A DNA stretch of 64,000 nucleotides. It comes from a bacterium. Its GTDB lineage: Bacteria; Actinomycetota; Acidimicrobiia; Spongiisociales; JAHEDJ01. A program made the translations under genes and the position numbers. The DNA is taken from contig JAHEDJ010000001.1 in NCBI GenBank assembly GCA_024641325.1, forward strand, positions 23,594 to 87,593, given 5' to 3'. Position 1 is the stretch's first letter. The number at the start of each line of letters is the position of its first letter. Positions 1 to 46,482 of the stretch are shown here, in pieces. The notes beneath the pieces are model-generated. The model saw nothing but the letters and a program-made list of their open reading frames with translations. It had not been told where the DNA came from and ran no database searches.

Positions 1-645
1 TATCCCCACACGACCGCTACGGAGGTGTCGGATAGCGAGCCTCCCAGTATCACCGTTGGGCTCACGCCGGCGGCAGTCGGTGGGGCGCTCGCATCCGCTC
101 TCACGATCAGCTTCGGGGCGCCACCTGCGATATCGGCCATGAGCAGTGTGTCGGGATCTACTCCCTCTGCGCCTTCGAGAAACAACAGAGTGGTTCGGCC
201 GTCCACCTCTTCGACGTCCAGCAGACGGATCTCTCGCTCCCACTCCGCGAAGAGAACCACCTCGGGTGAAGAAGTGCCTGCGGCGATGTGGAGCACACTA
301 TGCGGTGGGAATTGTTCAGGAGTGGTCTGGTATTGGTAGACGAGGCCGCCGGAGAGATCATCGAACGCCACCGCCACGGGATAGTCGGCATCTCCGGGAA
401 GGTCGCGTGTCTGTCCGCTTTCGAACAGAGTTACTCCTCCGAGGCGCGCAACGATCAAAGAGACATTCCCTTGAACAGCGGGCGTCGTCGATGTGGGCTG
501 TGTGGTTGTGCTCGTTGTCTGTGGGGACACTCGAGTATCGGTCGTGGTGGACCCAACCGTGCTCGTCGTTGCACCCGTTGAACATGCGCTTGCGGCGACG
601 ACCACGGTTATGTAGAACGAGAGCTTCCTCATGACCTGAAATACG

Positions 646-2034
646 TCATCTGCCGATCGATCGTTCCCGACGGTAGAGCATCGCCTGTTCGTAGGCGACG
701 AGGTAGTGCTGAGCCGCCGCCCCCCACGAGAAGTCGGTCAGCATGCCGTTGCGCTGCAATCTCCGGTATTCGCCTCTCGACTGCCGGAATATCCGCATCG
801 CTCTGCGAACCGTCTTGATCAGCTCTTCGTGCCTGAAATCCCGGAAGCCGAATCCGGTGGCGTCGGCGGGGCTCTCGTCGAGATCGATGACCGTGTCGTT
901 CAAGCCTCCTGTGAGGCGTACGACCGGCGGCGCTCCGTAGCGCATCGCGTAGATCTGTCCGATTCCGCACGGTTCGAAACGTGAAGGCATCAAATAAAAA
1001 TCTGCTCCGGCAGAGACAACCCTGGAAAGTCGTTCCTCATACGGGGCGTGCCAGATGGCATGAGGATGACGTTCTACCCAACTATCGACCATCGGATTCA
1101 AGTCGCCGTCTCCCACCAGAACGAGGCGCAGGCCCTCACCAACCAGCAGGTCGATGGCCGGGGCGAGTAGGTGAAGGCCCTTCTGCTCGGCCATGCGGCC
1201 CACATTGCCGAACAAGATTCCATCGGCCAACCCTGCTTCGGCCAGAAGGGCCTGGCGAGTGGCCTTGCGCGGGTACGGCCGATTTGGTGTGAAAGGGGCG
1301 GTCACGGCGGTGTCGGTTCTGGGGTTCCATTCGTCTGGGTTGAGCCCGTTGACTATTCCGGCGACCGGATGAGGAAGAGCGCGGATAACACCGTCGAGGC
1401 CTCCCGAGATCGAGGCGTCTTCGGTCAACTGCCTGGCGAAGGAAGGGCTCACCGTCGTTACCCGATCGGAGGCGGCAATCCCGGCCTTCAAGAAGTTGGC
1501 CTGACCCCACCATTCCAGATTGGCTCCGGGGGCCGTGTGGCGGGAATCGACTCCGACCACGGCTGCGGTTTCTGCCAGAGGGCCGAAGATGCCGTAGGCC
1601 GAATTGTGGATGGTGAATACTGTTGGAGTCGGGTTATCGAGGGCTGCCGGGCCGGCATGAGCATCGTGCAGATGGACCACCTCGTAATCGTGAGAGATGG
1701 CTCGCACCGCCGCCGAGAATCCACCGAAGCGCAGCCACTGGTCGTCGTACCCTTCTCCGTGAGAATCTCCATAGATACCATCTCGGTCGAAGGCAGGAGG
1801 ATCATCCACCAGGATCACCTCGACACCACCGGTCTCGTGGCGGTAAGTTGTCCGGGCCGGACCGGCCGGTTCGCTTTCGACTCCCAGGGCCATCAGGTGG
1901 CGATAACGGGGGAGAGCCACAGACACATCGTGCCCGGCTTTCACCAGAGCTCCGGCGATGCCGGCAACTGCTTCACCAAGACCACCGGTCCTGACAAGCG
2001 GCGAGAATTCGGACGCGGCGAGCAGGATTTTCAT
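646..2034 (-). CDS. glgA: Glycogen/alpha-1,4-glucan synthase (GlgA-like glycosyltransferase)
   Basis: The 462-aa product starts MKILLAASEFSPLVRTGGLGEAVAG, matching the E. coli GlgA N-terminal KTGGL motif region. Its start overlaps the stop of the upstream GH57 gene, suggesting an operon. Confidence 0.78.
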   Translation of the reverse strand: MKILLAASEFSPLVRTGGLGEAVAGIAGALVKAGHDVSVALPRYRHLMALGVESEPAGPARTTYRHETGGVEVILVDDPPAFDRDGIYGDSHGEGYDDQWLRFGGFSAAVRAISHDYEVVHLHDAHAGPAALDNPTPTVFTIHNSAYGIFGPLAETAAVVGVDSRHTAPGANLEWWGQANFLKAGIAASDRVTTVSPSFARQLTEDASISGGLDGVIRALPHPVAGIVNGLNPDEWNPRTDTAVTAPFTPNRPYPRKATRQALLAEAGLADGILFGNVGRMAEQKGLHLLAPAIDLLVGEGLRLVLVGDGDLNPMVDSWVERHPHAIWHAPYEERLSRVVSAGADFYLMPSRFEPCGIGQIYAMRYGAPPVVRLTGGLNDTVIDLDESPADATGFGFRDFRHEELIKTVRRAMRIFRQSRGEYRRLQRNGMLTDFSWGAAAQHYLVAYEQAMLYRRERSIGR

Positions 2035-10705: not shown

Positions 10706-10780
10706 TTTCAACCTCCCACAACGTTATCCCGCGGTGATCCCACGCTATATGGGCGTATTCCAGGGCGAGGACAAACAGGG

Positions 10781-11389
10781 TCAGAGCTCGGCGCCGGGGT
10801 TGCTGGGTGCTTCTTCCCAGGCACGAAGGAACTCGGCTGCTTCTGGTGAATTGTGCAGGGCCGCGAAGCGGGCGACCTGAACACCGACGTCACGAAGGCG
10901 TTCGAGGTGGCGAGTGCGGGTCGGAGATTCGGGAGCCAGGGCAGCCGAAGCATCTGGAACGGCGGCCTGCTGGGGGATCACCCACGCATGAAGTGCCCGG
11001 CCGATCGCCCGCAATCCCTGGAGGGCGTGGGAGGCTCCCATCGCGCCACCCGACACACCGACGAGTCCGACGATCTTCCCCTCGAATTCGTCGAATCCCA
11101 TCAGGTCGATGGCGTTCTTCAAGAGTCCGCTGTATCCGCCGTGATACTCGGGGGTGCCGATGATCAACCCGTGTGCCGTCCTCACATCCTCACGGAGGCG
11201 GACAACATCGGGTGAAGAGCTCGTATCGTCCTCGTTGCAGAACGGGAGATCATATTCGCGCAGGTCGACAAGCCGGGTTGCGGCTCCTGATTCCGCCGCT
11301 CCTTCTAGGGCGGCCAGGACTGCAAGTCGAGTCTTGCTATCTTCCCGGAGGCTGCCGACTATGCCGGCAATGATGATTTCCTGGGGCAC
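10781..11389 (-). CDS. NADPH-dependent FMN reductase family protein
   Basis: The 202-aa product belongs to the FMN_red family (IIIAGIVGSLREDSKTR...GTPEYHGGYSGLLKNAID). It uses a GTG start. Confidence 0.7.
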   Translation of the reverse strand: MPQEIIIAGIVGSLREDSKTRLAVLAALEGAAESGAATRLVDLREYDLPFCNEDDTSSSPDVVRLREDVRTAHGLIIGTPEYHGGYSGLLKNAIDLMGFDEFEGKIVGLVGVSGGAMGASHALQGLRAIGRALHAWVIPQQAAVPDASAALAPESPTRTRHLERLRDVGVQVARFAALHNSPEAAEFLRAWEEAPSNPGAEL

Positions 11390-23586: not shown

Positions 23587-23596
23587 CCGCACACCC

Positions 23597-26114: not shown

Positions 26115-27308
26115 TCATTCGACTATTCCCATCTCCCTACCGGCCGCGGCGAACGCTTCGAGCCCGTGGTCCAGGTCACCGCGCTCATGTGCCGCGGAAA
26201 TCATCACCCGGATCCGGGCCTTGCCCATCGGTACGGTCGGATAGGCAATTGCCTGTGCGAACACTTGGTGGATGTCAAAGAGGCGCTGGGACAACTCTCG
26301 AGCAACCTTCTCATCACCCAGCATCACCGGTGTGATCGGCGTCTGGGTGAACCCCGTATCGAATCCCAGGCTCTGCATTCCCTCACGAAAGCGCCGGGCA
26401 TTCATCCAGAGACGATCGACGAGTTCCGTCGATTCGGAGAGAATGTCCACCGAGGCGATACAGGCGGCAACGTCGGGCGGAGTCGCCGCAGATGAGAAGA
26501 GAAACGGGCGGGCGCGCTGGCGGAGCCAGTCGACGACCGGCTGTGGTCCGGCGACATAGCCGCCGACAACGCCGAACGCCTTCGACATTGTTCCAACCTC
26601 GACTTCGACTCGCCCACTGAGTCCAAAGTGATCGACAATACCTCTACCTCCGCGGCCGAGAACGCCTTCGCCGTGGGCGTCGTCGACCATCACCATCGCC
26701 GCATAGCGATCGGCGGTATCCACGATTGCATCGAGAGGGGCTACGTCGCCGTCCATCGAGAATACGCCGTCGGTGATGACGAGGATTCTCCTCGCTCCCT
26801 CCGCCCTGGCCGTCGCGAGTTGGGCGTCGAGATCGCTCATATCCGCGTGTTTGTATATTTTCCTGGCCGCCCTGGCTAGTCGCACCCCATCGATTATCGA
26901 AGCATGGTTCAACTCGTCGGTCACGATTACATCGCCGGCGTCTACGAGCGCCGGTATGGCGCCCGCATTGGCCACGAACCCGGCCTGGAAGGAGATGGCG
27001 GCTTCAACGCCTTTGAAGGCGGCGAGCCGTCGTTCGAGTTCGTCGTGGATGGTCATGGTGCCCGCGATGGTGCGAACAGCGCCCGGACCGATTCCGTACC
27101 GGTCGAGAGCCGCCTTGGCGGCCGCGATCAGTCTTTCATCGTCGGCCAGGCCGAGGTAGTTGTTTGAGCAGAAGTTGAGGACCCTGCGGCCGTCGACGTT
27201 GATCCAAGCTCCCTGCGGCCCGTCGATGTGACGGATCTGATTCCTGAGCCCCGCCTTTTCCAGGCCCGTCAGTTGCTCACGCAGGTATTCGACCTTGTCC
27301 ACCGTCAC
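26115..27308 (-). CDS. kbl: Glycine C-acetyltransferase (2-amino-3-ketobutyrate CoA ligase)
   Basis: The product is a class II aminotransferase/AONS-family enzyme (NFCSNNYLGLADDE...). A GTG start at 27308 overlaps the tdh stop (GTGA). The ORF-track start at 27362 is probably too long. Confidence 0.8.
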   Translation of the reverse strand: MTVDKVEYLREQLTGLEKAGLRNQIRHIDGPQGAWINVDGRRVLNFCSNNYLGLADDERLIAAAKAALDRYGIGPGAVRTIAGTMTIHDELERRLAAFKGVEAAISFQAGFVANAGAIPALVDAGDVIVTDELNHASIIDGVRLARAARKIYKHADMSDLDAQLATARAEGARRILVITDGVFSMDGDVAPLDAIVDTADRYAAMVMVDDAHGEGVLGRGGRGIVDHFGLSGRVEVEVGTMSKAFGVVGGYVAGPQPVVDWLRQRARPFLFSSAATPPDVAACIASVDILSESTELVDRLWMNARRFREGMQSLGFDTGFTQTPITPVMLGDEKVARELSQRLFDIHQVFAQAIAYPTVPMGKARIRVMISAAHERGDLDHGLEAFAAAGREMGIVE

Positions 27309-28363
27309 TCCAGGGGTCCGTCGGCGTCTTGGGGGTCCGGGAACATGATGACCTTGCCGCACTCGCCGGACGCCATAGTCTCGAATGCTCGATCGAAGTC
27401 ATCGAGGGCATACCGGTGAGTGACAATGGGTGATAGATCGACCGCGCCCGATCGCAGCAATCCCCTCATTTGATACCAATCGATCCAGAGTCGGCGTCCC
27501 ACTATGCCGTAGACGCTGGCGCCTTTGAAGATGACGTGGTCGTCCAGGTTGAACTCGAGTGGGGCAGAGGTCAGGCCGAGCAGCGCAGCCTCACCGCCCG
27601 ATTTGAGAGAAGTGAATCCCTCGTTGATTGCCGAAGGCGCTCCGGACATTTCGAGCAGGACATCGATGCCTTCACCCTCGCTGACGTCCATGATCGTGTC
27701 TACCACATCGCCCGTGGCCGGGTTGACCGTGATGTCGGCACCCATCTGTTTCGCCATTGCAAGCCGGTAGTCGCTCACGTCGCTGGCGATGATGAGCCGG
27801 GCTCCGAGTGCACGTGCAACGGCAACCGCCATGACACCCACTGGTCCACAACCGGTGACGAGCACTTTCCTGCCCGATACCAGTGGAACCGAGGCGGTGT
27901 GCACCGCGTTGCCGAAGTTCTCCTGAAGGGAGGCGATCGAGTAGGGCATGTCGGGCGGATCCGGCCAGGCGTTCGCTGCGGGGACCGCAACGAACTCCGC
28001 ATAGACGCCGTCCCTGCCGACGCCGAGGATCTTCGTGTTCTCACAGAGATGGCCCTTACCTGTGCGGCAGAACGCGCACCGATTGCACACGACGTGCGAC
28101 TCAACTGAAACAAGTTGCCCGATCTCCGGGCCATCTGCTTTTGGGCCTTTGTCGACGACGACTCCGCACATTTCGTGTCCGACGACGATGGGGGGAGTGA
28201 CGTGCGTTTGAGCCCAAGGGTCCCAGTTGCGAATGTGCAGGTCGGTGCCACAAATCGACGTGGCTTTCACCTGAAGAAGAACTTCATCCGGTCCGAGTTC
28301 CGGCATCGGCACATCAATCATTTCGAGACCGGGTTCGGATGAAGTTTTGACGACCGCTCGCAT
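27305..28363 (-). CDS. tdh: L-threonine 3-dehydrogenase
   Basis: The product is a Zn-ADH-family enzyme: MRAVVKTSSEPGLEMIDVPMPELGPDEVLLQVKATSICGTDLHI. I chose the internal Met that aligns with the E. coli Tdh start. Confidence 0.85.
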   Translation of the reverse strand: MRAVVKTSSEPGLEMIDVPMPELGPDEVLLQVKATSICGTDLHIRNWDPWAQTHVTPPIVVGHEMCGVVVDKGPKADGPEIGQLVSVESHVVCNRCAFCRTGKGHLCENTKILGVGRDGVYAEFVAVPAANAWPDPPDMPYSIASLQENFGNAVHTASVPLVSGRKVLVTGCGPVGVMAVAVARALGARLIIASDVSDYRLAMAKQMGADITVNPATGDVVDTIMDVSEGEGIDVLLEMSGAPSAINEGFTSLKSGGEAALLGLTSAPLEFNLDDHVIFKGASVYGIVGRRLWIDWYQMRGLLRSGAVDLSPIVTHRYALDDFDRAFETMASGECGKVIMFPDPQDADGPLE

Positions 28364-28395
28364 CAATCTCAGGCTAACTGACCGGCAGAGGTCCG

Positions 28396-29004
28396 ATGAC
28401 ATCGCAACCCCGAGGCTGTGGAAGAATGACGGGAATGAGTGTTGAAACAGTATCCAAATTCTTCGCCCTGCTCACGCTGGCCGCCATGGCCGGTGTGAGC
28501 GGCGTGCTGGTGGTCATGTTGACGGCGCGGTGGTCGCCATCCATCGCCCGCTTCAGAGATTCTGCCATCGAGTTGGTGTCACCTGCTGCTCTGTGGCTCG
28601 GGTCGTTCATCGCAGCGGTTTCTATGGCGGGGAGCCTCTACTACTCAGAAGTGGCCGACTTCGCCCCGTGCGATCTGTGCTGGTACCAGCGAATCGCCAT
28701 GTATCCGCTGGCGATCATCCTGGCAATCGCCGCGTATCGCAAGGACGTTGGGATACGACGATACACATACCCTGTGGCGGTGATCGGTGCTGTGATCGCC
28801 ACATATCAGTACGTGCTGCAGCTCAGACCCAGCCTCGAGTCGGGTTTCTGCGGGGTTGATGCATCGTGCACTGAGCGTTACATCTGGCAGTTCGGGTTCA
28901 TATCGTTCCCGTTCATGTCTCTGGTCGGGTTCGCGATGATATTCACACTGCTCTACATCGCAGCCAGGGCGGAGCAGGAGCAAGCAGAAGGACCTAGGTC
29001 ATAG
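28396..29004 (+). CDS. Disulfide bond formation protein B (DsbB/BdbC family)
   Basis: The product carries the BdbC/DsbB motif LYYSEVADFAPCDLCWYQRIAMYP and a second Cys pair (FCGVDASC). There is an extra N-terminal hydrophobic segment, and the start may instead be at 28426 or 28435. Confidence 0.65.
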   Translation: MTSQPRGCGRMTGMSVETVSKFFALLTLAAMAGVSGVLVVMLTARWSPSIARFRDSAIELVSPAALWLGSFIAAVSMAGSLYYSEVADFAPCDLCWYQRIAMYPLAIILAIAAYRKDVGIRRYTYPVAVIGAVIATYQYVLQLRPSLESGFCGVDASCTERYIWQFGFISFPFMSLVGFAMIFTLLYIAARAEQEQAEGPRS

Positions 29005-29028
29005 GTTCCGGGGCGTGGTCCCGGAACC
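29004..29028. terminator. Hairpin GGTTCCGGG-GCGTGGT-CCCGGAACC between convergent genes
   Basis: A perfect 9-bp GC-rich stem is followed by the A/T-rich CAAAATTC. It lies between the dsbB-like stop and the stop of Sec-TlpA gene 1. Confidence 0.5.
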
Positions 29029-29051
29029 CAAAATTCAGAACCCAGGACGAT

Positions 29052-29720
29052 CTACCCCTCGCCGCGCATGAAGCCGATAGCGTTTTCGAGGTCTGCTCCG
29101 GTCAACGGTCCAACATGGCGGGTGACGACGGTGCCGGATCCATCCACGATTACGGAATACGGGAAGTAGACGAGACCGTAGCTCTTCATGGCGGTTCCGT
29201 TCTCATCGTCGACGAGCACCGGGATCGGCCATTCGGCCAGCCACTCGCTCGGCGGATAGCCTTTTTCGGTGGGCCTATTACTGCCTGAAACGCTGACGAT
29301 ATCGATATCGGTCGGCAGGTCGTTGGTGGACCAGTAGCTCAGCAAGTCCGAGACCTCGGACTGGCAGTGCGGTCACCAGTGGGTCAGGAACATGATGATC
29401 TTCGGTCGACCGTCGTTCTTGATTTCGACCGGCGATCCGTCAAAAGACTGACCGCTCAACTCCGGCATCGGCAAGCCGAGTGCAGGGTCTGCACCCTGCT
29501 CCGGCATGGGCACTAGGACACTGCCGATCACGGTCACGGGGCGCGTTTCACTGATGGATGCCGCAGCGGCGGCACCGTCTCCGGGTCCGCCGTCGGATGC
29601 AGTCCCCGGATCATCGGAGCCTGTCAGCAGCACGGCCGCGACCCCGGCGAGCAGCACGAAGGCGGCAGCAACTCCGAAGATGAGCAACGATCGAGTTTTG
29701 GAGGTGTTCTGGTCTGTCAT
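29052..29720 (-). CDS. TlpA/ResA-like membrane-anchored thiol-disulfide oxidoreductase, putative selenoprotein (in-frame TGA at about 29373-29375 read as Sec; active site W-U-P-H-C)
   Basis: Two track ORFs, 29373..29720 and 29052..29345, lie in the same frame and are joined by a single TGA. The joined product reads ...GRPKIIMFLTHW-U-PHCQSEVSDL... and aligns with the TlpA/ResA FWASWCGPC active site, with U at the first Cys. An N-terminal TM helix is present. A SECIS-like hairpin starts 6 nt after the TGA. Confidence 0.7.
29340..29368 (-). promoter_or_regulatory. Putative bacterial SECIS element (stem CUGCCAGUCCGA, loop GGUC, stem UCGGACUUGC)
   Basis: The GGUC apical loop sits at positions 21-24 counted from the U of UGA, versus 22-25 in the E. 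coli fdhF SECIS. The same 26 nt occur in the paralog on the other strand. Confidence 0.6.
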
Positions 29721-29776
29721 GTTCCCCTAATGTGTGCGGACAGATTGTACGTGTGATTGCGGGAAACGAGGAACTG

Positions 29777-30397
29777 ATGGCGAAGTACAAGTCGCGCAAG
29801 CGGAAGCAGAGCATGCTGCCGCTGGCCCTGGGTGTCGTTGGAGCGTTTGCCGTGCTGGCGGTTGTTGCCACCATGCTCAGCACGGACGAGGCCTCGGTTT
29901 ACGGAGATATCACGGTGCGGGGGGAAGGGTTGCCTGCGTTCGTTGCCGGCGCTCCCGATGCTGCGATAGGCCTCGCACTTCCCACCATCGAGGGTGCCGA
30001 TTTCGACGGCAACCCCGTCACGATCTCCGACGACGGTAGACCCAAGCTGATTCTCAACCTGGCGCACTGGTGACCTGTCTGCCAGTCCGAGGTCTCGGAC
30101 TTGCAGCGCTACTTCGATGAAAACGGTTTGCCTTCGGCAGTTGATCTCTACTCGACCTCGATTCTCGTCGAGCCTTCCAGAGTCAACTACCCGCCCGGCG
30201 CCTGGCTGGAGCGTGAAGGGTGGACGCCACCGGTGATCGTGGATGATCGGACCGACTCGGTTCATTCAGCGCTGGGAATGCCAAATGTCCCGGCGTGGGT
30301 TGTCGTGGGTAGCGATAACGTGGTCATTCAGCGAGTAGCCAGCGGCATCACCACGGAGCAGTTCGAGGAACTCGTGGCACTGGCGGCCGGCGCCTGA
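29777..30397 (+). CDS. TlpA/ResA-like membrane-anchored thiol-disulfide oxidoreductase, putative selenoprotein (in-frame TGA at 30071-30073 read as Sec; active site W-U-P-V-C)
   Basis: Track ORFs 29732..30073 and 30101..30397 are in the same frame. The start MAKYKSRK is preceded by an AGGAA SD sequence, and an N-terminal TM helix is present. The product reads ...GRPKLILNLAHW-U-PVCQSEVSDL..., with the TGA at the first Cys of CxxC and a SECIS-like hairpin downstream. Confidence 0.7.
30079..30106 (+). promoter_or_regulatory. Putative bacterial SECIS element (12-bp stem with one mismatch, GGUC tetraloop)
   Basis: The sequence is UGA-CCUGU-CUGCCAGUCCGA-GGUC-UCGGACUUGCAG. The loop G and U positions and the spacing from the UGA are like E. 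coli fdhF. Confidence 0.6.
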
Positions 30398-30474
30398 TCT
30401 CACTTGCAGGATTCAACATGCGGTGCGGTATGATGCCGTCCGCCCGTCTGCCAGGCGCGCCCATTCGGGGGTGG

Positions 30475-30546
30475 TGTAATTGGCAACACAGCAGGTTCTG
30501 GTCCTGTCATTGAGGGTTCGAGTCCTTCCCCCCGAGCGAGCCCGGT
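30475..30546 (+). tRNA. tRNA-Gln (anticodon CTG)
   Basis: I folded the cloverleaf by hand, finding a U1-A72 acceptor TCGGGGG/CCCCCGA like bacterial tRNA-Gln. The D-arm is GTGT-AATTGGCA-ACAC, the anticodon loop is TTCTGGT, and the T-loop is TTCGAGT. Confidence 0.7.
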
Positions 30547-30569
30547 AACGGGCACAAACGGCCCCGTCG

Positions 30570-30643
30570 TCTAGCGGCCTAGGACGCCGGCCTCTCAAGC
30601 CGGTAACGCCAGTTCGAATCTGGTCGGGGCTGCCGCACCGACA
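30570..30643 (+). tRNA. tRNA-Glu (anticodon CTC)
   Basis: The sequence is near-identical to the tRNA-Glu at 23597, with anticodon loop CTCTCAA and T-arm GCCAG-TTCGAAT-CTGGT. Confidence 0.8.
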
Positions 30644-41887: not shown

Positions 41888-43150
41888 TCAACCCTCAGAA
41901 CCGACGGCCGGACGGAGGTTCACTACCTCGGCCGGCCGGGTGATTCTCGTCACTTCTCGATCGAGGTCGGTGACGACCGCCAGAAGCTCTGTCCGTAACT
42001 GCTCGAGTGTCCCGCGCACGTTCTCCACCGATGTCGTTATGTCGGTTAGTGAGCGTCGGCTGCCCGACATCAGCTGGGCCAGCTGGCGTATGCGCTGGAG
42101 CCTGTCTTCGAAGAGTCCGTGGTCGAGCTCTCCACGAGTCTGACGCTCGGCAGCCATCGCAGAAATCGCCCAACGAATTGCGACGGACGTCATGGCACCG
42201 TCTCCTTGATCCACCACCAGGAGACGGTGCCCGTAAACGCCGAACTGACCGACCTCCCTCGGGAAAGCTTCGCGGGCGGAAACACAAACGGAGAAATCGG
42301 CAGACCGGTTGACGATTGCTCTGTCCAATTCGTCGAGGATGCCGTCTTTTCCCGCCAGGTTGATTCGCGCGGTGTTCTTGGCTTCGACGACGATCCGGGC
42401 CCCGTCGGCAAGTGTGACGACGAAGTCGCCGACCATTGCGTCGGCGCTGAACTCGCCGGGCGTTCTACCCGTCCGCTCGACTACGCAACCGCCGAGTCCG
42501 GCGACGGCTTCTCGAAGCCAATTCTCGACAGATTCTTCGAAGTCGAATCCCTTCTGAGTGCCGGCTTCGGCCTCTTCTGCCCGCCCTCGCTGATGCATGA
42601 CTGCGTCGCGCAACTCCGTGAGCCGATCCTCGATCGACCGGCCGAGTTGGGCGAAAGCCGATGTGTCGACGGTCGGGTCCAGCGCCTCCTCGAGACGTCT
42701 CTGGAGTTCACCTGCCGGGCCTACCAGCGACGCGAGTTGGGACAAAAAGACGGCCGTGTTGCTGTCGGCATCGGCCGGATCCATGCGCGCCAGGAAGTCG
42801 TCTCGCCAGGCCGTGAATTCGTTGAGTGTCCTCGCAACCGTCGAACTCCGATGCTCGGGAGAGAGTTGTGCTTCAAATGCGTGGCCGGCAGTCGTGAGGA
42901 CCGTCTCGACCTCCCGGCGGGCCTCGGCGGTGGCTTCGAGGATGGAACGTCTAACTCGGTCATCGATCTCCGAGAGGTCGATGCCGAGACCCATCGACAA
43001 GAGTCCTCTCACCCCGACGGCTATGGCCCTCGTGAGAACCTCAGCTCGCAACTCCTCCGGCTGAGTCGTCAGCAACTGTGCCAATCCGGGGTCGGTCACC
43101 TCGAGATCCTCGATCGTGACTGTGTCTCCGTCCACTCGTATCAGCGCCAT
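41888..43150 (-). CDS. Hypothetical coiled-coil protein with C-terminal PD-(D/E)XK-like motif (RmuC-like architecture?)
   Basis: I chose the internal Met MALIRVDG. A long helical N-terminal region is present, and the C-terminus GDFVVTLADGARIVVEAKNT resembles a D...E-x-K nuclease motif. Assignment is uncertain. Confidence 0.35.
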   Translation of the reverse strand: MALIRVDGDTVTIEDLEVTDPGLAQLLTTQPEELRAEVLTRAIAVGVRGLLSMGLGIDLSEIDDRVRRSILEATAEARREVETVLTTAGHAFEAQLSPEHRSSTVARTLNEFTAWRDDFLARMDPADADSNTAVFLSQLASLVGPAGELQRRLEEALDPTVDTSAFAQLGRSIEDRLTELRDAVMHQRGRAEEAEAGTQKGFDFEESVENWLREAVAGLGGCVVERTGRTPGEFSADAMVGDFVVTLADGARIVVEAKNTARINLAGKDGILDELDRAIVNRSADFSVCVSAREAFPREVGQFGVYGHRLLVVDQGDGAMTSVAIRWAISAMAAERQTRGELDHGLFEDRLQRIRQLAQLMSGSRRSLTDITTSVENVRGTLEQLRTELLAVVTDLDREVTRITRPAEVVNLRPAVGSEG

Positions 43151-43211
43151 GTGTTCAATGTATCCGGCACGAGTGACAGAAACGCGCATTTGGGTGTGGG
43201 ACAATCTCCGG

Positions 43212-44906
43212 ATGCCCGCACCGATCGCCCCAGTCGCCGATCTTCGTGCCGCGCTACATGCGCTGGCGGAGTTGATCGACGATGTGACGTTCAAGCTCCC
43301 CGGCAACGCTCGCACGGCTCGAAACACTCTGCGGCGAGAGACCGCCTGGGGTATCAACGAGTACCTTCTACCCAGACTCGGTGACCTCGATGCCCCTCTC
43401 GTCGCGGTATTGATTGGCTCAACCGGAAGCGGCAAGTCCACCATTCTCAACAGCCTTGCTCAACTCCCTATCAGCGATGCCGGCGCGCTCCGCCCCACCA
43501 CGACCATGCCCGTCGTCTGGGCTCACGGACTCCACGTCGATCGCTACCGGGAGGAGTTTCTCTCCGGATATGGATCCGAGCAGCAGCCTATCCGAGTGGT
43601 AGACGGCAGAGATTCGCTGCTCCGCGGGCTCACGGTCATCGACGCACCGGATTTCGACTCGGTTGTGGAGCACCACCGCCGGATGGCGGACGATTTGTTG
43701 GCGGTAGGTGATGTCATCTTGTTCGTGACCTCGGCCCAGCGCTACGCCGACGCCGTCCCGTGGGAGTTTCTGGAGAAGGCTCACTCGCGTTCGGTTCCGG
43801 TTCTGTTCATCGCCAATCGAATTCCACCCCGATCCGACGATCTGATCGCCGACTACCGGCGCCTCCTGGAGGAGAGAGGGTTCCCCCTGGAGCAGCGCTT
43901 TTTCGAGATTACCGAACAGCCTGTCGAGCGGACGATCGGTGCTCTGCCTGAGAAGGCGGTGGTCGATATCCTTGCTCGTCTGCAGGAGATGGCGAGCGAA
44001 TCGGGCCGCGCCGCGGTACTCGAGGCCTCGATACGCGGCGCCGTTGGCGAGCTTGCCGTTCGAACGGCCGCTCTCGAACAGGCCGTCTCCCAAGAGGTCG
44101 CTGAGGCCGGAGCCTTGCGTCGTGTTGCGTCTGCTGCATATGAACGTCAGGTCGGAGAGGTCTCCGGATCCCTGGATTCCGGCGAGCTGATCCGAGCCGA
44201 GGTGATCGAGAGATGGCAGGAGTTCCTGGGTACCGGCGAGTTGACGAAGGCAATCACCGACGGCGTTTCTCGCCTCTCCTCGTGGGCCAGGCGGGTGTTC
44301 GGCGGCAACCAGTCCGTCACGCGGGTCCGGGCAGATACCGGCATGGAGTTGAGCGAGGTCCTAATCCGCCGCGCCGACCTGGCCGCCACGGCTGCGGCAT
44401 CAGCGTGGGAACTGGACCCGGCCGGCGCTGCGTTGCTCGGTGGCCGGCCACTCTGGAGACACGCCGACACGACTGCGGCGCGCGCAGCCGAGGCCGTGGA
44501 AGACTGGCTGACAGACCTCTCCGAGCTGATATCCGAAGCAGGCGCATCCAAGAAGCGGACTGCGCAGGTGGCGTCCTACGGCGTAAACAGCGTTGCAGTG
44601 GCGTTGATTCTCGGTGTGTTCCTTCAGACCGGAGGCCTAACGGGTGCCGAGGTCGGGGTGGCAGCCGGAGCGGCTGCCGCACAACAGAAACTGCTCGAGC
44701 ACCTGTTCGGCTCGGCAGCTGCTCGCTCGCTGATCGAAACAGCCAGGCTCCGACTGAGCCACACGGTCGGCGTGGTGCTCACAGAAGATGGAGCGAGGTT
44801 CGGCAAGCTCCTCGACGACCATACCGATGAGTTGCCAGAGGCAGGCTCGTTGATTTCCGCGTGCGACCGGGTGCTCGACTTGGTGGAGGCATGGGATGGC
44901 GTATGA
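43212..44906 (+). CDS. Dynamin-like GTPase family protein (bacterial DLP, IniA/DynA-like)
   Basis: The product has a P-loop GSTGSGKST, a G2 Thr (RPTTT), a G3 motif VIDAPDFDS, and a long helical stalk. The start MPAPIAPV was chosen over the track start at 43116. Confidence 0.65.
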   Translation: MPAPIAPVADLRAALHALAELIDDVTFKLPGNARTARNTLRRETAWGINEYLLPRLGDLDAPLVAVLIGSTGSGKSTILNSLAQLPISDAGALRPTTTMPVVWAHGLHVDRYREEFLSGYGSEQQPIRVVDGRDSLLRGLTVIDAPDFDSVVEHHRRMADDLLAVGDVILFVTSAQRYADAVPWEFLEKAHSRSVPVLFIANRIPPRSDDLIADYRRLLEERGFPLEQRFFEITEQPVERTIGALPEKAVVDILARLQEMASESGRAAVLEASIRGAVGELAVRTAALEQAVSQEVAEAGALRRVASAAYERQVGEVSGSLDSGELIRAEVIERWQEFLGTGELTKAITDGVSRLSSWARRVFGGNQSVTRVRADTGMELSEVLIRRADLAATAAASAWELDPAGAALLGGRPLWRHADTTAARAAEAVEDWLTDLSELISEAGASKKRTAQVASYGVNSVAVALILGVFLQTGGLTGAEVGVAAGAAAAQQKLLEHLFGSAAARSLIETARLRLSHTVGVVLTEDGARFGKLLDDHTDELPEAGSLISACDRVLDLVEAWDGV

Positions 44907-46482
44907 CATAGCCGCCGCCCTCGATCTCCTCGATCTCGCCATAGGCAGAGCAACGGAGATCGTCGAGCCTGAGGTTCTGATGCCGCACGCGCAGACTGCA
45001 AAGGACGTTCGCGCCAGGATCGGCTTCCTCGGTCGGTCGGTTGTCGTCGCCCTGGTGGGCGGCACCGGATCGGGCAAATCCAGCCTCCTGAATGCACTGG
45101 CCGGAGAGGAGGTCGCGGCCACGGGCGTAGTGCGCCCGACCACCGAGCGGCCCCTCGCCTGGATCCCGGCCAACCCGGAACCTGGCCTGACCCGGCTGCT
45201 GGATGATCTCTCCATCGGTGACAGGGTCGGGCACGACTCCTTCGGAGAGATCGCCATTCTCGACCTGCCCGATACCGATAGCGTGATCCGGTCACATCGG
45301 GAGGTGGTTGAGTACCTTCTCCCCAGGGTGGACGCGGTGATCTGGGTCCTCGATCCCGAGAAATACAACGACCGTCTGCTGCACCGCGATCTGCTGCAAC
45401 CACTCAGTCGCTATTCGTCGCAGTTCATCTTTGTCCTCAACCAGATCGACCGATTGAGCCCGGCGGAGGAAAACCAGGTGGTGGATGATCTCCGGCGAAC
45501 ACTCGAGGAGGACGGAATCGATAACGCTCAACTCCTTACTATTGCCGCCGCTCCCGACAGCGGGCCACGAATTGGGATCGCCCGCTTGAGCCGTGACCTG
45601 CACGGCAAGCTCGAGGCAAAGCAAGTGGTCATGAAGAAGATCATCGCCGACCTCCGTGAAGCACGAGACGGTATCGCCCGTACGACTGGAGTCGGCGTGG
45701 GGGCGGGAACATCGTACGACGATCGCTGGGACGCGACCGCGAACCATGTCACGGGGATACTGGTTGACCCCATGGTCGGAGACGATGCGGCGGCCCTGGA
45801 AGCGGGCCGGCAGGCGGCCCTCAGAAGAGGTGGAGGACCTATTGCCGCTCTCACCGGATGGTACCGATCCACCCGGTTCGCCCGGGTGGCCGGCCGCACT
45901 CACCCGGCGGACAAGGTCCGGCTGGATGCCTCTGCGCAGCTCACGCGGGCGGCTTCGTCCGTTACCGAATTGGTGGCCGATCTGTCTTTTGAGATTGGCG
46001 GATCATTCGGGCGGGTTCTCCGTGGGGAAGTGGTGCCCGAGGGGATTGAGCAGGAGATCGGTCGAGTCGTGGAGGCGGCGTCGCGAGAGGTCGGGGAGTT
46101 CCGAGTCGGCGCGCCGAGTTGGTGGTGGCGCTTGATCGGGGTGGCTCAGTGGTTTCTGGCGGGCGCGATCCTGGCAGGGATCATCTGGCTGTGGGCCGAT
46201 CCGGATTCGCTCGAGCCGGGGGGCGACGTACGTCCTCTGTTGCTGGCCGCAGGTTCACTGGTGCTGGGATTGCTCCTTCGTGCGGCGATTGTCGTCGCCG
46301 GTCAGCGCGCCGGGCGTCGTGCCCTTCTTCGGCATGTTGACGCCCTCCGAGCCGCCGTCCGGTCGAGGCTCGATCGCGGGGTGGGAAGCTCCATCAGGAC
46401 GCGAATGAGGACCCGGGCGGAAGTCGCCGGAGCGTTGACGGAACTAGGGATTGTCACTGCGGCATTGGAAGAGAGTCTGTAA
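44896..46482 (+). CDS. Dynamin-like GTPase family protein with C-terminal TM hairpin (DynB/IniC-like partner)
   Basis: The product has a P-loop GGTGSGKSS, a G3 motif ILDLPDTDS and a G4 motif LNQID. A C-terminal hydrophobic hairpin (WWWRLIGVAQWFLAGAILAGIIWLW) is present. The gene overlaps the upstream DLP by 11 nt. Confidence 0.65.
   Translation: MAYDIAAALDLLDLAIGRATEIVEPEVLMPHAQTAKDVRARIGFLGRSVVVALVGGTGSGKSSLLNALAGEEVAATGVVRPTTERPLAWIPANPEPGLTRLLDDLSIGDRVGHDSFGEIAILDLPDTDSVIRSHREVVEYLLPRVDAVIWVLDPEKYNDRLLHRDLLQPLSRYSSQFIFVLNQIDRLSPAEENQVVDDLRRTLEEDGIDNAQLLTIAAAPDSGPRIGIARLSRDLHGKLEAKQVVMKKIIADLREARDGIARTTGVGVGAGTSYDDRWDATANHVTGILVDPMVGDDAAALEAGRQAALRRGGGPIAALTGWYRSTRFARVAGRTHPADKVRLDASAQLTRAASSVTELVADLSFEIGGSFGRVLRGEVVPEGIEQEIGRVVEAASREVGEFRVGAPSWWWRLIGVAQWFLAGAILAGIIWLWADPDSLEPGGDVRPLLLAAGSLVLGLLLRAAIVVAGQRAGRRALLRHVDALRAAVRSRLDRGVGSSIRTRMRTRAEVAGALTELGIVTAALEESL

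Follow-up and report, generated by a model that had tools for sequence, protein, structure and literature searches.

The 64,000-nucleotide stretch analyzed here (positions 23,594 to 87,593 of contig JAHEDJ010000001.1 from the Acidimicrobiia assembly GCA_024641325.1; G+C content, 62%; referred to below as the window) contains a module in which a dsbB-type gene adjoins two TlpA/redoxin-fold genes, A and B, each carrying one in-frame TGA. This module is probably a selenium-using version of the DsbB-partner disulfide system. In the reading that we favor as the likely one, it forms disulfide bonds outside the cytoplasm with two components, a DsbB protein and the DsbA-like selenocysteine (Sec) partner that it reoxidizes; Sec insertion would be under the direction of a SECIS (selenocysteine insertion sequence) hairpin, and the partner is present here as two paralogues. 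The feature is real and well supported, and it represents a new variation on both DsbB-partner oxidative folding and UxxC thioredoxin-fold selenoproteins. DsbB-DsbA is the textbook route to protein disulfides outside the cytoplasm, and we know of no natural selenium-dependent version of it that has been characterized. The parts of the module are as follows.

28396..29004, plus strand: open reading frame (ORF) of the predicted DsbB/BdbC-family membrane thiol oxidase, with a likely start at ATG 28426 and 192 amino acids (aa); identified from Pfam, homologues, and an AlphaFold2 model.
29052..29720, minus strand: gene A, candidate membrane-anchored selenoprotein of the TlpA/redoxin fold, 222 aa, W-U-P-H-C; identified from translation, Pfam, and homologues.
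29373..29375, minus strand: in-frame UGA of gene A (read 29375..29373), predicted Sec116; codon aligned with the Cys of homologues.
29345..29362, minus strand: SECIS-like hairpin of gene A, AGUCCGA-GGUC-UCGGACU, beginning 11 nucleotides (nt) past the UGA.
29721..29776, no strand: 56-bp intergenic region from which A and B diverge, presumed to be a shared promoter region; from gene coordinates.
29777..30397, plus strand: gene B, candidate membrane-anchored selenoprotein of the TlpA/redoxin fold, 206 aa, W-U-P-V-C; identified from translation, Pfam, and a neighbor-joining (NJ) tree.
30071..30073, plus strand: in-frame UGA of gene B, predicted Sec99; from translation and homologues.
30084..30101, plus strand: SECIS-like hairpin of gene B, with the same sequence as the one in gene A; from a hairpin scan and pairing statistics.

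Gene A is convergent with dsbB, and gene B diverges from A across the 56-bp region. These coordinates agree with the layout given in the first-pass annotation of this DNA.

When U was read as Cys, both gene products passed the cutoff of the Pfam Redoxin family (PF08534; A, 36.5 bits; B, 30.7 bits; cutoff, 26.6 bits), and the match spanned the TGA in each case (residues 82 to 213 of A and 67 to 187 of B). The site of the TGA is occupied by WCPHC in 119 of the 120 best homologues of the gene product (38 to 53% identity), and those of the 120 that bear names belong to the Acidimicrobiia or Actinomycetota. The TGA also aligned with the first Cys in 64 adjacent partner genes of relatives. Residues typical of TlpA/redoxin proteins, namely, W115, C116, C119, and the cis-proline P187, are invariant or nearly so over 60 sequences. 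A and B thus show what is expected of a bacterial selenoprotein gene: a UGA at the catalytic Cys of homologues, with coding that continues beyond it.

A global reassignment of TGA was rejected, since TGA is the commonest ordinary stop codon in the window and closes 22 of its 40 genes; the same count implies that the recoding at A and B is local. The combination of TGA and hairpin occurred twice in the window and not once in 100 shuffles, and A and B are the window's only coding-like TGA-interrupted ORFs with such a hairpin; a scan of the window for further TGA-interrupted ORFs gave no convincing one. Scanning 1.67 Mb of related loci for TGA plus a GGUC hairpin returned only TlpA-like genes (44) and 4 spurious off-frame matches. 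A metagenome scan, in which the pattern was constrained only at H-W-TGA, at the second Cys codon, and at GAR-GTN-TC, yielded 58 stretches; of these, 33 were contigs bearing genuine TlpA-like genes and 25 were chance matches. Metagenome contigs and the species-representative loci L001 and L003 together provided 45 Sec-type genes, whose mutual protein identity ranges from 35 to 100%.

The hairpin consists of a 7-bp stem and a GGUC loop and recurs in the 45 Sec-type genes, with 98.9% of the stem pair cells paired over 40 distinct sequences. Three outer stem pairs vary, two of them through compensatory double changes (A-U to G-C and G-C to A-U). No synonymous position of the codons TCC-GAG-GTC-TCG varies in any of the 45 genes, though the scan pattern left these positions free, and the neighboring codons do vary. 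The protein sequence changes with the RNA: the Cys-type sequence is WCPHCQ[A/R]EVP and the Sec-type sequence is W-U-x-x-C-[Q/R]-S-E-V-S, and a site that is Pro in 96% of Cys forms is Ser in 100% of Sec forms. Since the substitutions of the Sec forms create the stem, the protein has been bent to suit the RNA structure.

These properties (a stem-loop just past the UGA, G/U in the apical loop, and conserved structure) are those of a SECIS. Like the Escherichia coli fdhF SECIS, whose sequence we verified against 5,419 E. coli genomes, the hairpin lies just past the UGA and has an apical A-GGUC-U; counted from the U of UGA, the loop starts at 21 in A and B and at 22 in fdhF. In contrast to fdhF, its stem sequence is different and it has no evident bulged U, and its role in SelB recognition is putative. 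The Rfam SECIS models gave no match at the gathering score or at E ≤ 10, albeit these models cover bacterial elements poorly (bioRxiv 10.64898/2026.04.03.716425). From the Sec/Cys homologue pairs and the conserved SECIS-like hairpin, we infer that the UGA codons of A and B are decoded as Sec; the UxxC reading that the first-pass annotation had given to both thioredoxin-fold genes is therefore retained.

Sec and Cys forms also differ between their two active-site residues. PH is the dipeptide of 164 of 184 Cys forms (89%) and of just 12 of 43 Sec forms (28%), the remaining Sec forms having PG, PF, PY, PV, PL, PA, PT, or QF. With Sec in place, the DsbA-like His seems to be under less constraint, which would fit a low Sec pKa that makes the His dispensable.

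As thiol oxidases, proteins of the DsbB family oxidize a partner of the thioredoxin fold and hand its electrons on to quinone. The DsbB-like ORF of the window contains CDLCWYQRIAMYP and the motif PCDLCWYQRIAMYP. A database protein that is 99% identical (P0172) has a length of 192 aa, which makes ATG 28426 the probable start. The product matched Pfam DsbB (PF02600) with an E value of 6.7e-14 and 52.9 bits (cutoff, 22.1), a domain carried by all 120 of its listed homologues, and scored just below the cutoff of the NCBIfam BdbC-type model (NF002849/PRK03113; 121.4 bits versus 124). On these profile scores, we file it as a BdbC-like member of the DsbB family rather than as a BdbC equivalog. The first of its Cys pairs is CDLC and the second is a C-x5-C (FCGVDASC); C82, C85, C142, and C148 are invariant over 60 DsbB homologues, and each is present in 75 to 77 of the 81 sequences of the locus set. 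The pairs were placed in two outward loops, the CxxC after transmembrane helix 1 and the other between transmembrane helices 3 and 4, and the K/R-rich loops that follow helix 0 and connect helix 2 to helix 3 would indeed orient both pairs to the outside.

An AlphaFold2 model of DsbB built with homologues (mean predicted local distance difference test score, 91.4; predicted template modeling score, 0.88) has five helices, at residues 6 to 33, 38 to 76, 83 to 105, 108 to 133, and 161 to 187. Its best fold match in the PDB is E. coli DsbB (2zuq_A), with a probability of 0.99 and a template modeling score of 0.61 on the target but a weak E value of 0.3. The model thus predicts the four-helix bundle of DsbB plus one additional N-terminal helix. 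Most of the 80 nearest homologues share this helix in the alignment, so the extra N-terminal hydrophobic segment that had been singled out earlier is real but is a subfamily-wide trait and not a local oddity.

Genes A and B each encode a single N-terminal hydrophobic segment (residues 12 to 30 of A and 16 to 34 of B), with basic residues before it (MAKYKSRKRKQS in B) and acidic residues after it in both proteins. Anchor hydropathy and flanking charges suggest an N-in/C-out anchor that holds the thioredoxin domains outside the cytoplasm. A cytoplasmic location of these domains, which had been raised in the first-pass annotation as an objection to an extracytoplasmic relay, is not what the charge distribution indicates.

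Linkage between dsbB and a TlpA-like gene was assessed in the best 80 DsbB loci, with one genome per GTDB species, which came from the Acidimicrobiia, other Actinomycetota, and Limnocylindria-type Chloroflexota. A TlpA-like gene adjoins dsbB in 66 of the 80 loci, lying immediately downstream on the same strand in 64. One of the remaining loci is interrupted by an assembly gap, two are on contigs that end too early, and about ten truly have no partner. The most common spacing between dsbB and its partner is a 4-nt start/stop overlap (32 of the 57 loci with placeable starts), which is a signature of translational coupling. Clustering of the neighbors over the 80 loci left the TlpA-like partner as the only broadly conserved one, and CcdA, DsbD, ResB, and ResC were all missing from the conserved neighbors of these loci. 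The linkage extends to the Sec forms. dsbB is present on 24 of the 33 metagenome Sec-type contigs, i.e., on 24 of the 24 that are long enough to judge; the other nine either end before the expected dsbB site or, in contig L132, carry an insertion sequence (IS) element there. Sec forms have two layouts. In 19 contigs and L003, there is one Sec gene located downstream of dsbB; in the window, L001, L126, L128, and L130, there is an A/B pair. A two-gene dsbB/partner system is widespread, with Cys, in related bacteria, and the synteny check that the first-pass annotation had suggested, on whether dsbB-like and tlpA-like genes co-occur with Cys or Sec in relatives, came out in favor of conserved linkage.

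Several of the individual loci had features of their own. In L002, a run of N (gap or masking; positions ~10750 to 10870) cuts into an ORF that opens like a TlpA-type gene just behind dsbB, and tblastn reported no hit though the gene is probably there. The DsbB homologues of six loci from Limnocylindria-type Chloroflexota (L030, L036, L040, L041, L045, and L063) have no adjacent TlpA-like gene; in L036, L040, L041, and L045, dsbB adjoins a long ORF that opens with a putative dinucleotide-binding-type motif and is convergent with amino acid metabolism genes. In L132, a 285-aa transposase-like ORF (27 to 884, minus strand) occupies the site, immediately downstream of an A-type Sec gene, at which dsbB is expected, and it looks like an IS insertion.

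Building on the observed gene structures, Sec/Cys pairing, hairpin conservation, synteny, and DsbB fold, we propose that the five-helix DsbB/BdbC-type protein would reoxidize a membrane-anchored TlpA-fold partner and presumably pass the electrons to quinone. The partner would take the role of DsbA and donate its active-site bond to secreted or membrane proteins. Its exposed attacking Cys would be encoded by UGA and read as Sec by means of a SelB-type SECIS hairpin 11 nt downstream, which would make the active bond a selenenylsulfide (U-x-x-C). In the ancestral layout, dsbB would have had a single, translationally coupled partner gene downstream; here, the place of that partner is taken by two paralogues, of which B groups with the ancestral downstream gene, while A may have been inserted in inverted orientation between dsbB and B. 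The two might differ in their substrates or in having an oxidase versus an isomerase role.

An oxidase role, with electrons passing from the partner through DsbB to quinone, is suggested by two lines of reasoning. First, a partner fused in an operon to dsbB is the expected substrate of DsbB, as with bdbDC in Bacillus. Second, Cys-form partners carry CPHC, the motif of E. coli DsbA itself; given this motif and the existence of TlpA-fold oxidants in Actinobacteria, we take the partner to stand in for DsbA, its Sec forms being oxidases that would form a selenenylsulfide. The scarcity of PH among the Sec forms is a further pattern in favor of this reading. Neither A nor B hit the DsbA family (PF01323 and PF13462) at E ≤ 0.01, so these proteins may work like DsbA yet fall outside its family. 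We advance a broader version of this reading only tentatively, with somewhat less than even confidence: that A, B, and their relatives are natural selenium-based DsbA replacements and form the first DsbB-driven folding pathway with a membrane-anchored selenenylsulfide donor, in which the His of CPHC is dispensable and which has persisted and diversified in a sediment/marine clade of Acidimicrobiia.

Five observations weigh against this proposal. The nearest relatives of A and B by sequence and solved structure (ResA, StoA, Etrx, and CcmG) are CcdA-fed reductants. Selenenylsulfides are generally more stable, i.e., less oxidizing, than disulfides, which would weaken an oxidase thermodynamically. 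In the window, A is convergent with dsbB and B lies 773 bp downstream, so that the tight operon coupling seen in relatives has been lost. NJ trees recovered the Sec forms as monophyletic with 112 sequences and as two clans with 232, and we make no claim on their monophyly. Finally, neither the 64-kb window nor 10-kb flanks taken from other assemblies nor the 1.67 Mb of related loci yielded selA, selB, selC, or selD; this search comprised Pfam on the ~40 window genes, the flanks, and tblastn of E. coli SelA, SelB, and SelD on the 1.67 Mb. Sec machinery is reported to be universal in the Actinomarinales, another order of Acidimicrobiia (bioRxiv 10.64898/2026.04.03.716425); the Sec trait is therefore plausible in the class and putative in this organism.

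The first of these observations points to an alternative in which A and B are reductants or isomerases of the ResA/StoA/Etrx/CcmG type, reduced by a CcdA or DsbD encoded elsewhere; the adjacency of dsbB would then reflect co-regulation of oxidative and reductive arms or a DsbB acting on another target. The best family matches of A and B are StoA, DsbE, ResA, TlpA, and MauD, and their profile matches among PDB sequences are StoA (3erw), CcmG, ResA, and pneumococcal Etrx (4hqz/2yp6). By established chemistry, Sec is also more nucleophilic and brings a lower redox potential, which would be favorable for a reductant, and the dipeptides of the gene B type are not DsbA-like (PV here and PF or QF elsewhere). 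On the other hand, CcdA, DsbD, ResB, and ResC are not among the conserved neighbors of the 80 loci, overlap of the translational-coupling type with dsbB is the rule, 89% of the Cys forms have the DsbA motif CPHC, and TlpA-fold oxidants do exist in Actinobacteria. We therefore regard a reductive or isomerizing function as unlikely, though it is the most serious of the alternatives. Of the redox roles that the first-pass annotation had left open, the DsbB-linked oxidase is kept as an option, and the reductase is less likely than a DsbA-like oxidase.

A second alternative divides the labor between the paralogues: only B, as the descendant of the ancestral downstream gene, would be the oxidase substrate of DsbB, and A, the inverted insertion, would act in isomerization or in peroxide or sulfenate reduction with another redox partner. 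In the NJ tree of 232 sequences, B groups with the single Sec genes found directly downstream of DsbB elsewhere, with A in a clan of its own close to other Cys forms; the two share only ~35 to 42% identity and differ in their active-site dipeptides; and Mycobacterium tuberculosis likewise keeps two paralogues, DsbE and DsbF. However, the DsbA-like PH dipeptide is in A rather than B, the NJ topology is weakly resolved and shifts with sampling, and A and B always occur together next to dsbB in their lineage (the window, L001, L126, L128, and L130). Such a division is improbable on this evidence.

The least probable alternative is that the UGA codons do not encode Sec, the genes being pseudogenes, split genes, or subject to hairpin-promoted read-through as Cys or Trp without SelB: it would accommodate the failure to find Sec machinery in the sequence searched, the public annotation as separate hypothetical proteins, and the missing Rfam match (the last of which we discount given how poorly those models perform on bacterial elements), but 45 genes that keep frame, domain, and a TGA at the catalytic position at 35 to 100% identity are incompatible with decay, a thioredoxin fold split at its active site cannot work as two proteins, and the hairpin shares its apex and spacing with the proven fdhF SECIS.

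Three further features border the module.

29004..29028, no strand: stable GC-rich hairpin of the GGUUCCGGGG...CCCCGGAACC type between the convergent dsbB and gene A; from fold energy.
30465..30537, plus strand: tRNA-Gln(ctg); from ARAGORN and Rfam.
30560..30634, plus strand: tRNA-Glu(ctc); from ARAGORN and Rfam.

The hairpin at 29004 to 29028 sits between both stop codons and has a folding energy of -20.7 kcal/mol (z = -3.2), which one shuffle in 200 matched. It is probably a bidirectional transcription terminator without a T-run; a scan for consensus promoters and terminators called nothing and missed this hairpin for want of the T-run. Within 29721 to 29776, we found no sigma-70 consensus and no special fold.

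The tRNA-Gln(CTG)/tRNA-Glu(CTC) pair just 3' of the module had been noted in the first-pass annotation, and both ARAGORN and Rfam agree on it. The pair follows the module in 9 of 105 DsbB loci (L001, L126, L128, L130, L117, L024, and L038 among them), i.e., in the closest lineage and two Cys-type genomes, and the other DsbB loci are without it. Its proposed use as a synteny marker thus holds for the closest lineage but not beyond. The pair marks the boundary of the locus and is outside the disulfide system.

Immediately upstream of dsbB, 26115 to 28402 on the minus strand holds a threonine dehydrogenase-like gene (zinc alcohol dehydrogenase family; members of its cluster are named threonine 3-dehydrogenase) and an aminotransferase class I/II gene, which we read as a pair for threonine degradation (tdh-kbl). 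The tdh ORF exceeds most of its homologues (352 aa) by 13 codons, and so it probably does not overlap dsbB. A tRNA-Phe(gaa) called by ARAGORN at 26980 to 27054 on the plus strand was rejected as probably false, as it lies antisense inside the Aminotran_1_2 kbl-like ORF (26115 to 27362) and has no Rfam tRNA hit. Farther along the window, two adjacent large GTPase genes with Dynamin_N matches (43116 to 46482, plus strand) look like a bacterial dynamin-like pair that is unrelated to the module.

The module has implications for both redox chemistry and genome annotation. Compared with Cys, Sec is predicted by established selenium chemistry to give faster thiol-disulfide exchange but a less oxidizing couple, and Sec and Cys forms that share the same DsbB partner offer a natural comparison of faster exchange against a less oxidizing bond. 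In many Acidimicrobiia and Limnocylindria-type Chloroflexota, the dedicated partner of DsbB has a TlpA fold rather than a DsbA fold, which affects genome-based predictions of disulfide makers. Genes of the A/B type are also misannotated, being stored publicly as pairs of truncated hypothetical proteins: gene A is split into a 115-aa and a 97-aa "hypothetical protein" and gene B into two of 98 aa each. HSR44667.1 is a related record among the halved selenoprotein candidates, and the misannotation is systematic across the clade.

Predicted UxxC selenoproteins have already been catalogued as "thiol-disulfide isomerase-like" (cd02966), "Redoxin family/Prx-like 3" (PF08534), "DsbA-like," and "DsbG-like" proteins, which are functionally uncharacterized (PMC13188914, PMC1088965, and PMC2398784). 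A redoxin family protein listed in a 2026 review carries the accession HEU0032618.1. A and B resemble them in having a UxxC in a thioredoxin fold and far more numerous Cys homologues, and they were recognized by the same logic of an in-frame UGA plus a SECIS. Our literature search found no paper mentioning selenoproteins together with DsbB and TlpA and no description of a dsbB/TlpA-fold module. UxxC selenoproteins of the TlpA/redoxin-like kind are thus already known, but their link to DsbB appears to be undescribed. The NCBIfam family NF041054 ("ResA-like WAxxUGC motif-containing protein") is likewise a ResA-like selenoprotein family, but its Sec motif and length differ from those of A and B, and it was rejected as an assignment (15.8 bits versus a cutoff of 300).

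Among characterized proteins, ResA, StoA, TlpA, CcmG, and Etrx are the best relatives of A and B by sequence and solved structure; they are membrane anchored or lipoproteins and have a WCxxC and a cis-Pro. Unlike A and B, which are linked to DsbB and have no CcdA among their conserved neighbors, these proteins are reductive and fed by CcdA/DsbD, and A and B score far below the NCBIfam cutoffs of the ResA/StoA/TlpA/CcmG-type equivalogs. DsbE (MPT53; 1LU4) and DsbF of M. tuberculosis are actinobacterial TlpA-fold proteins that act as oxidants in vitro (PMC3853704). They share with A and B export, the TlpA/CcmG fold, and the occurrence of two paralogues, but they use Cys rather than Sec, and their proposed membrane partner is DsbD or Rv2877c rather than DsbB; the sequence match to MPT53 is weak (E = 7e-5 over 66 residues). 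The BdbC-BdbD pair of Bacillus subtilis resembles the module in its membrane component of the BdbC subtype (a PCxLCWYQR motif and a second Cys pair), its adjacent partner gene, and its outward active sites. The module differs from this pair in that its partner has a TlpA/redoxin fold with Sec as the first Cys and its DsbB has a fifth, N-terminal helix.

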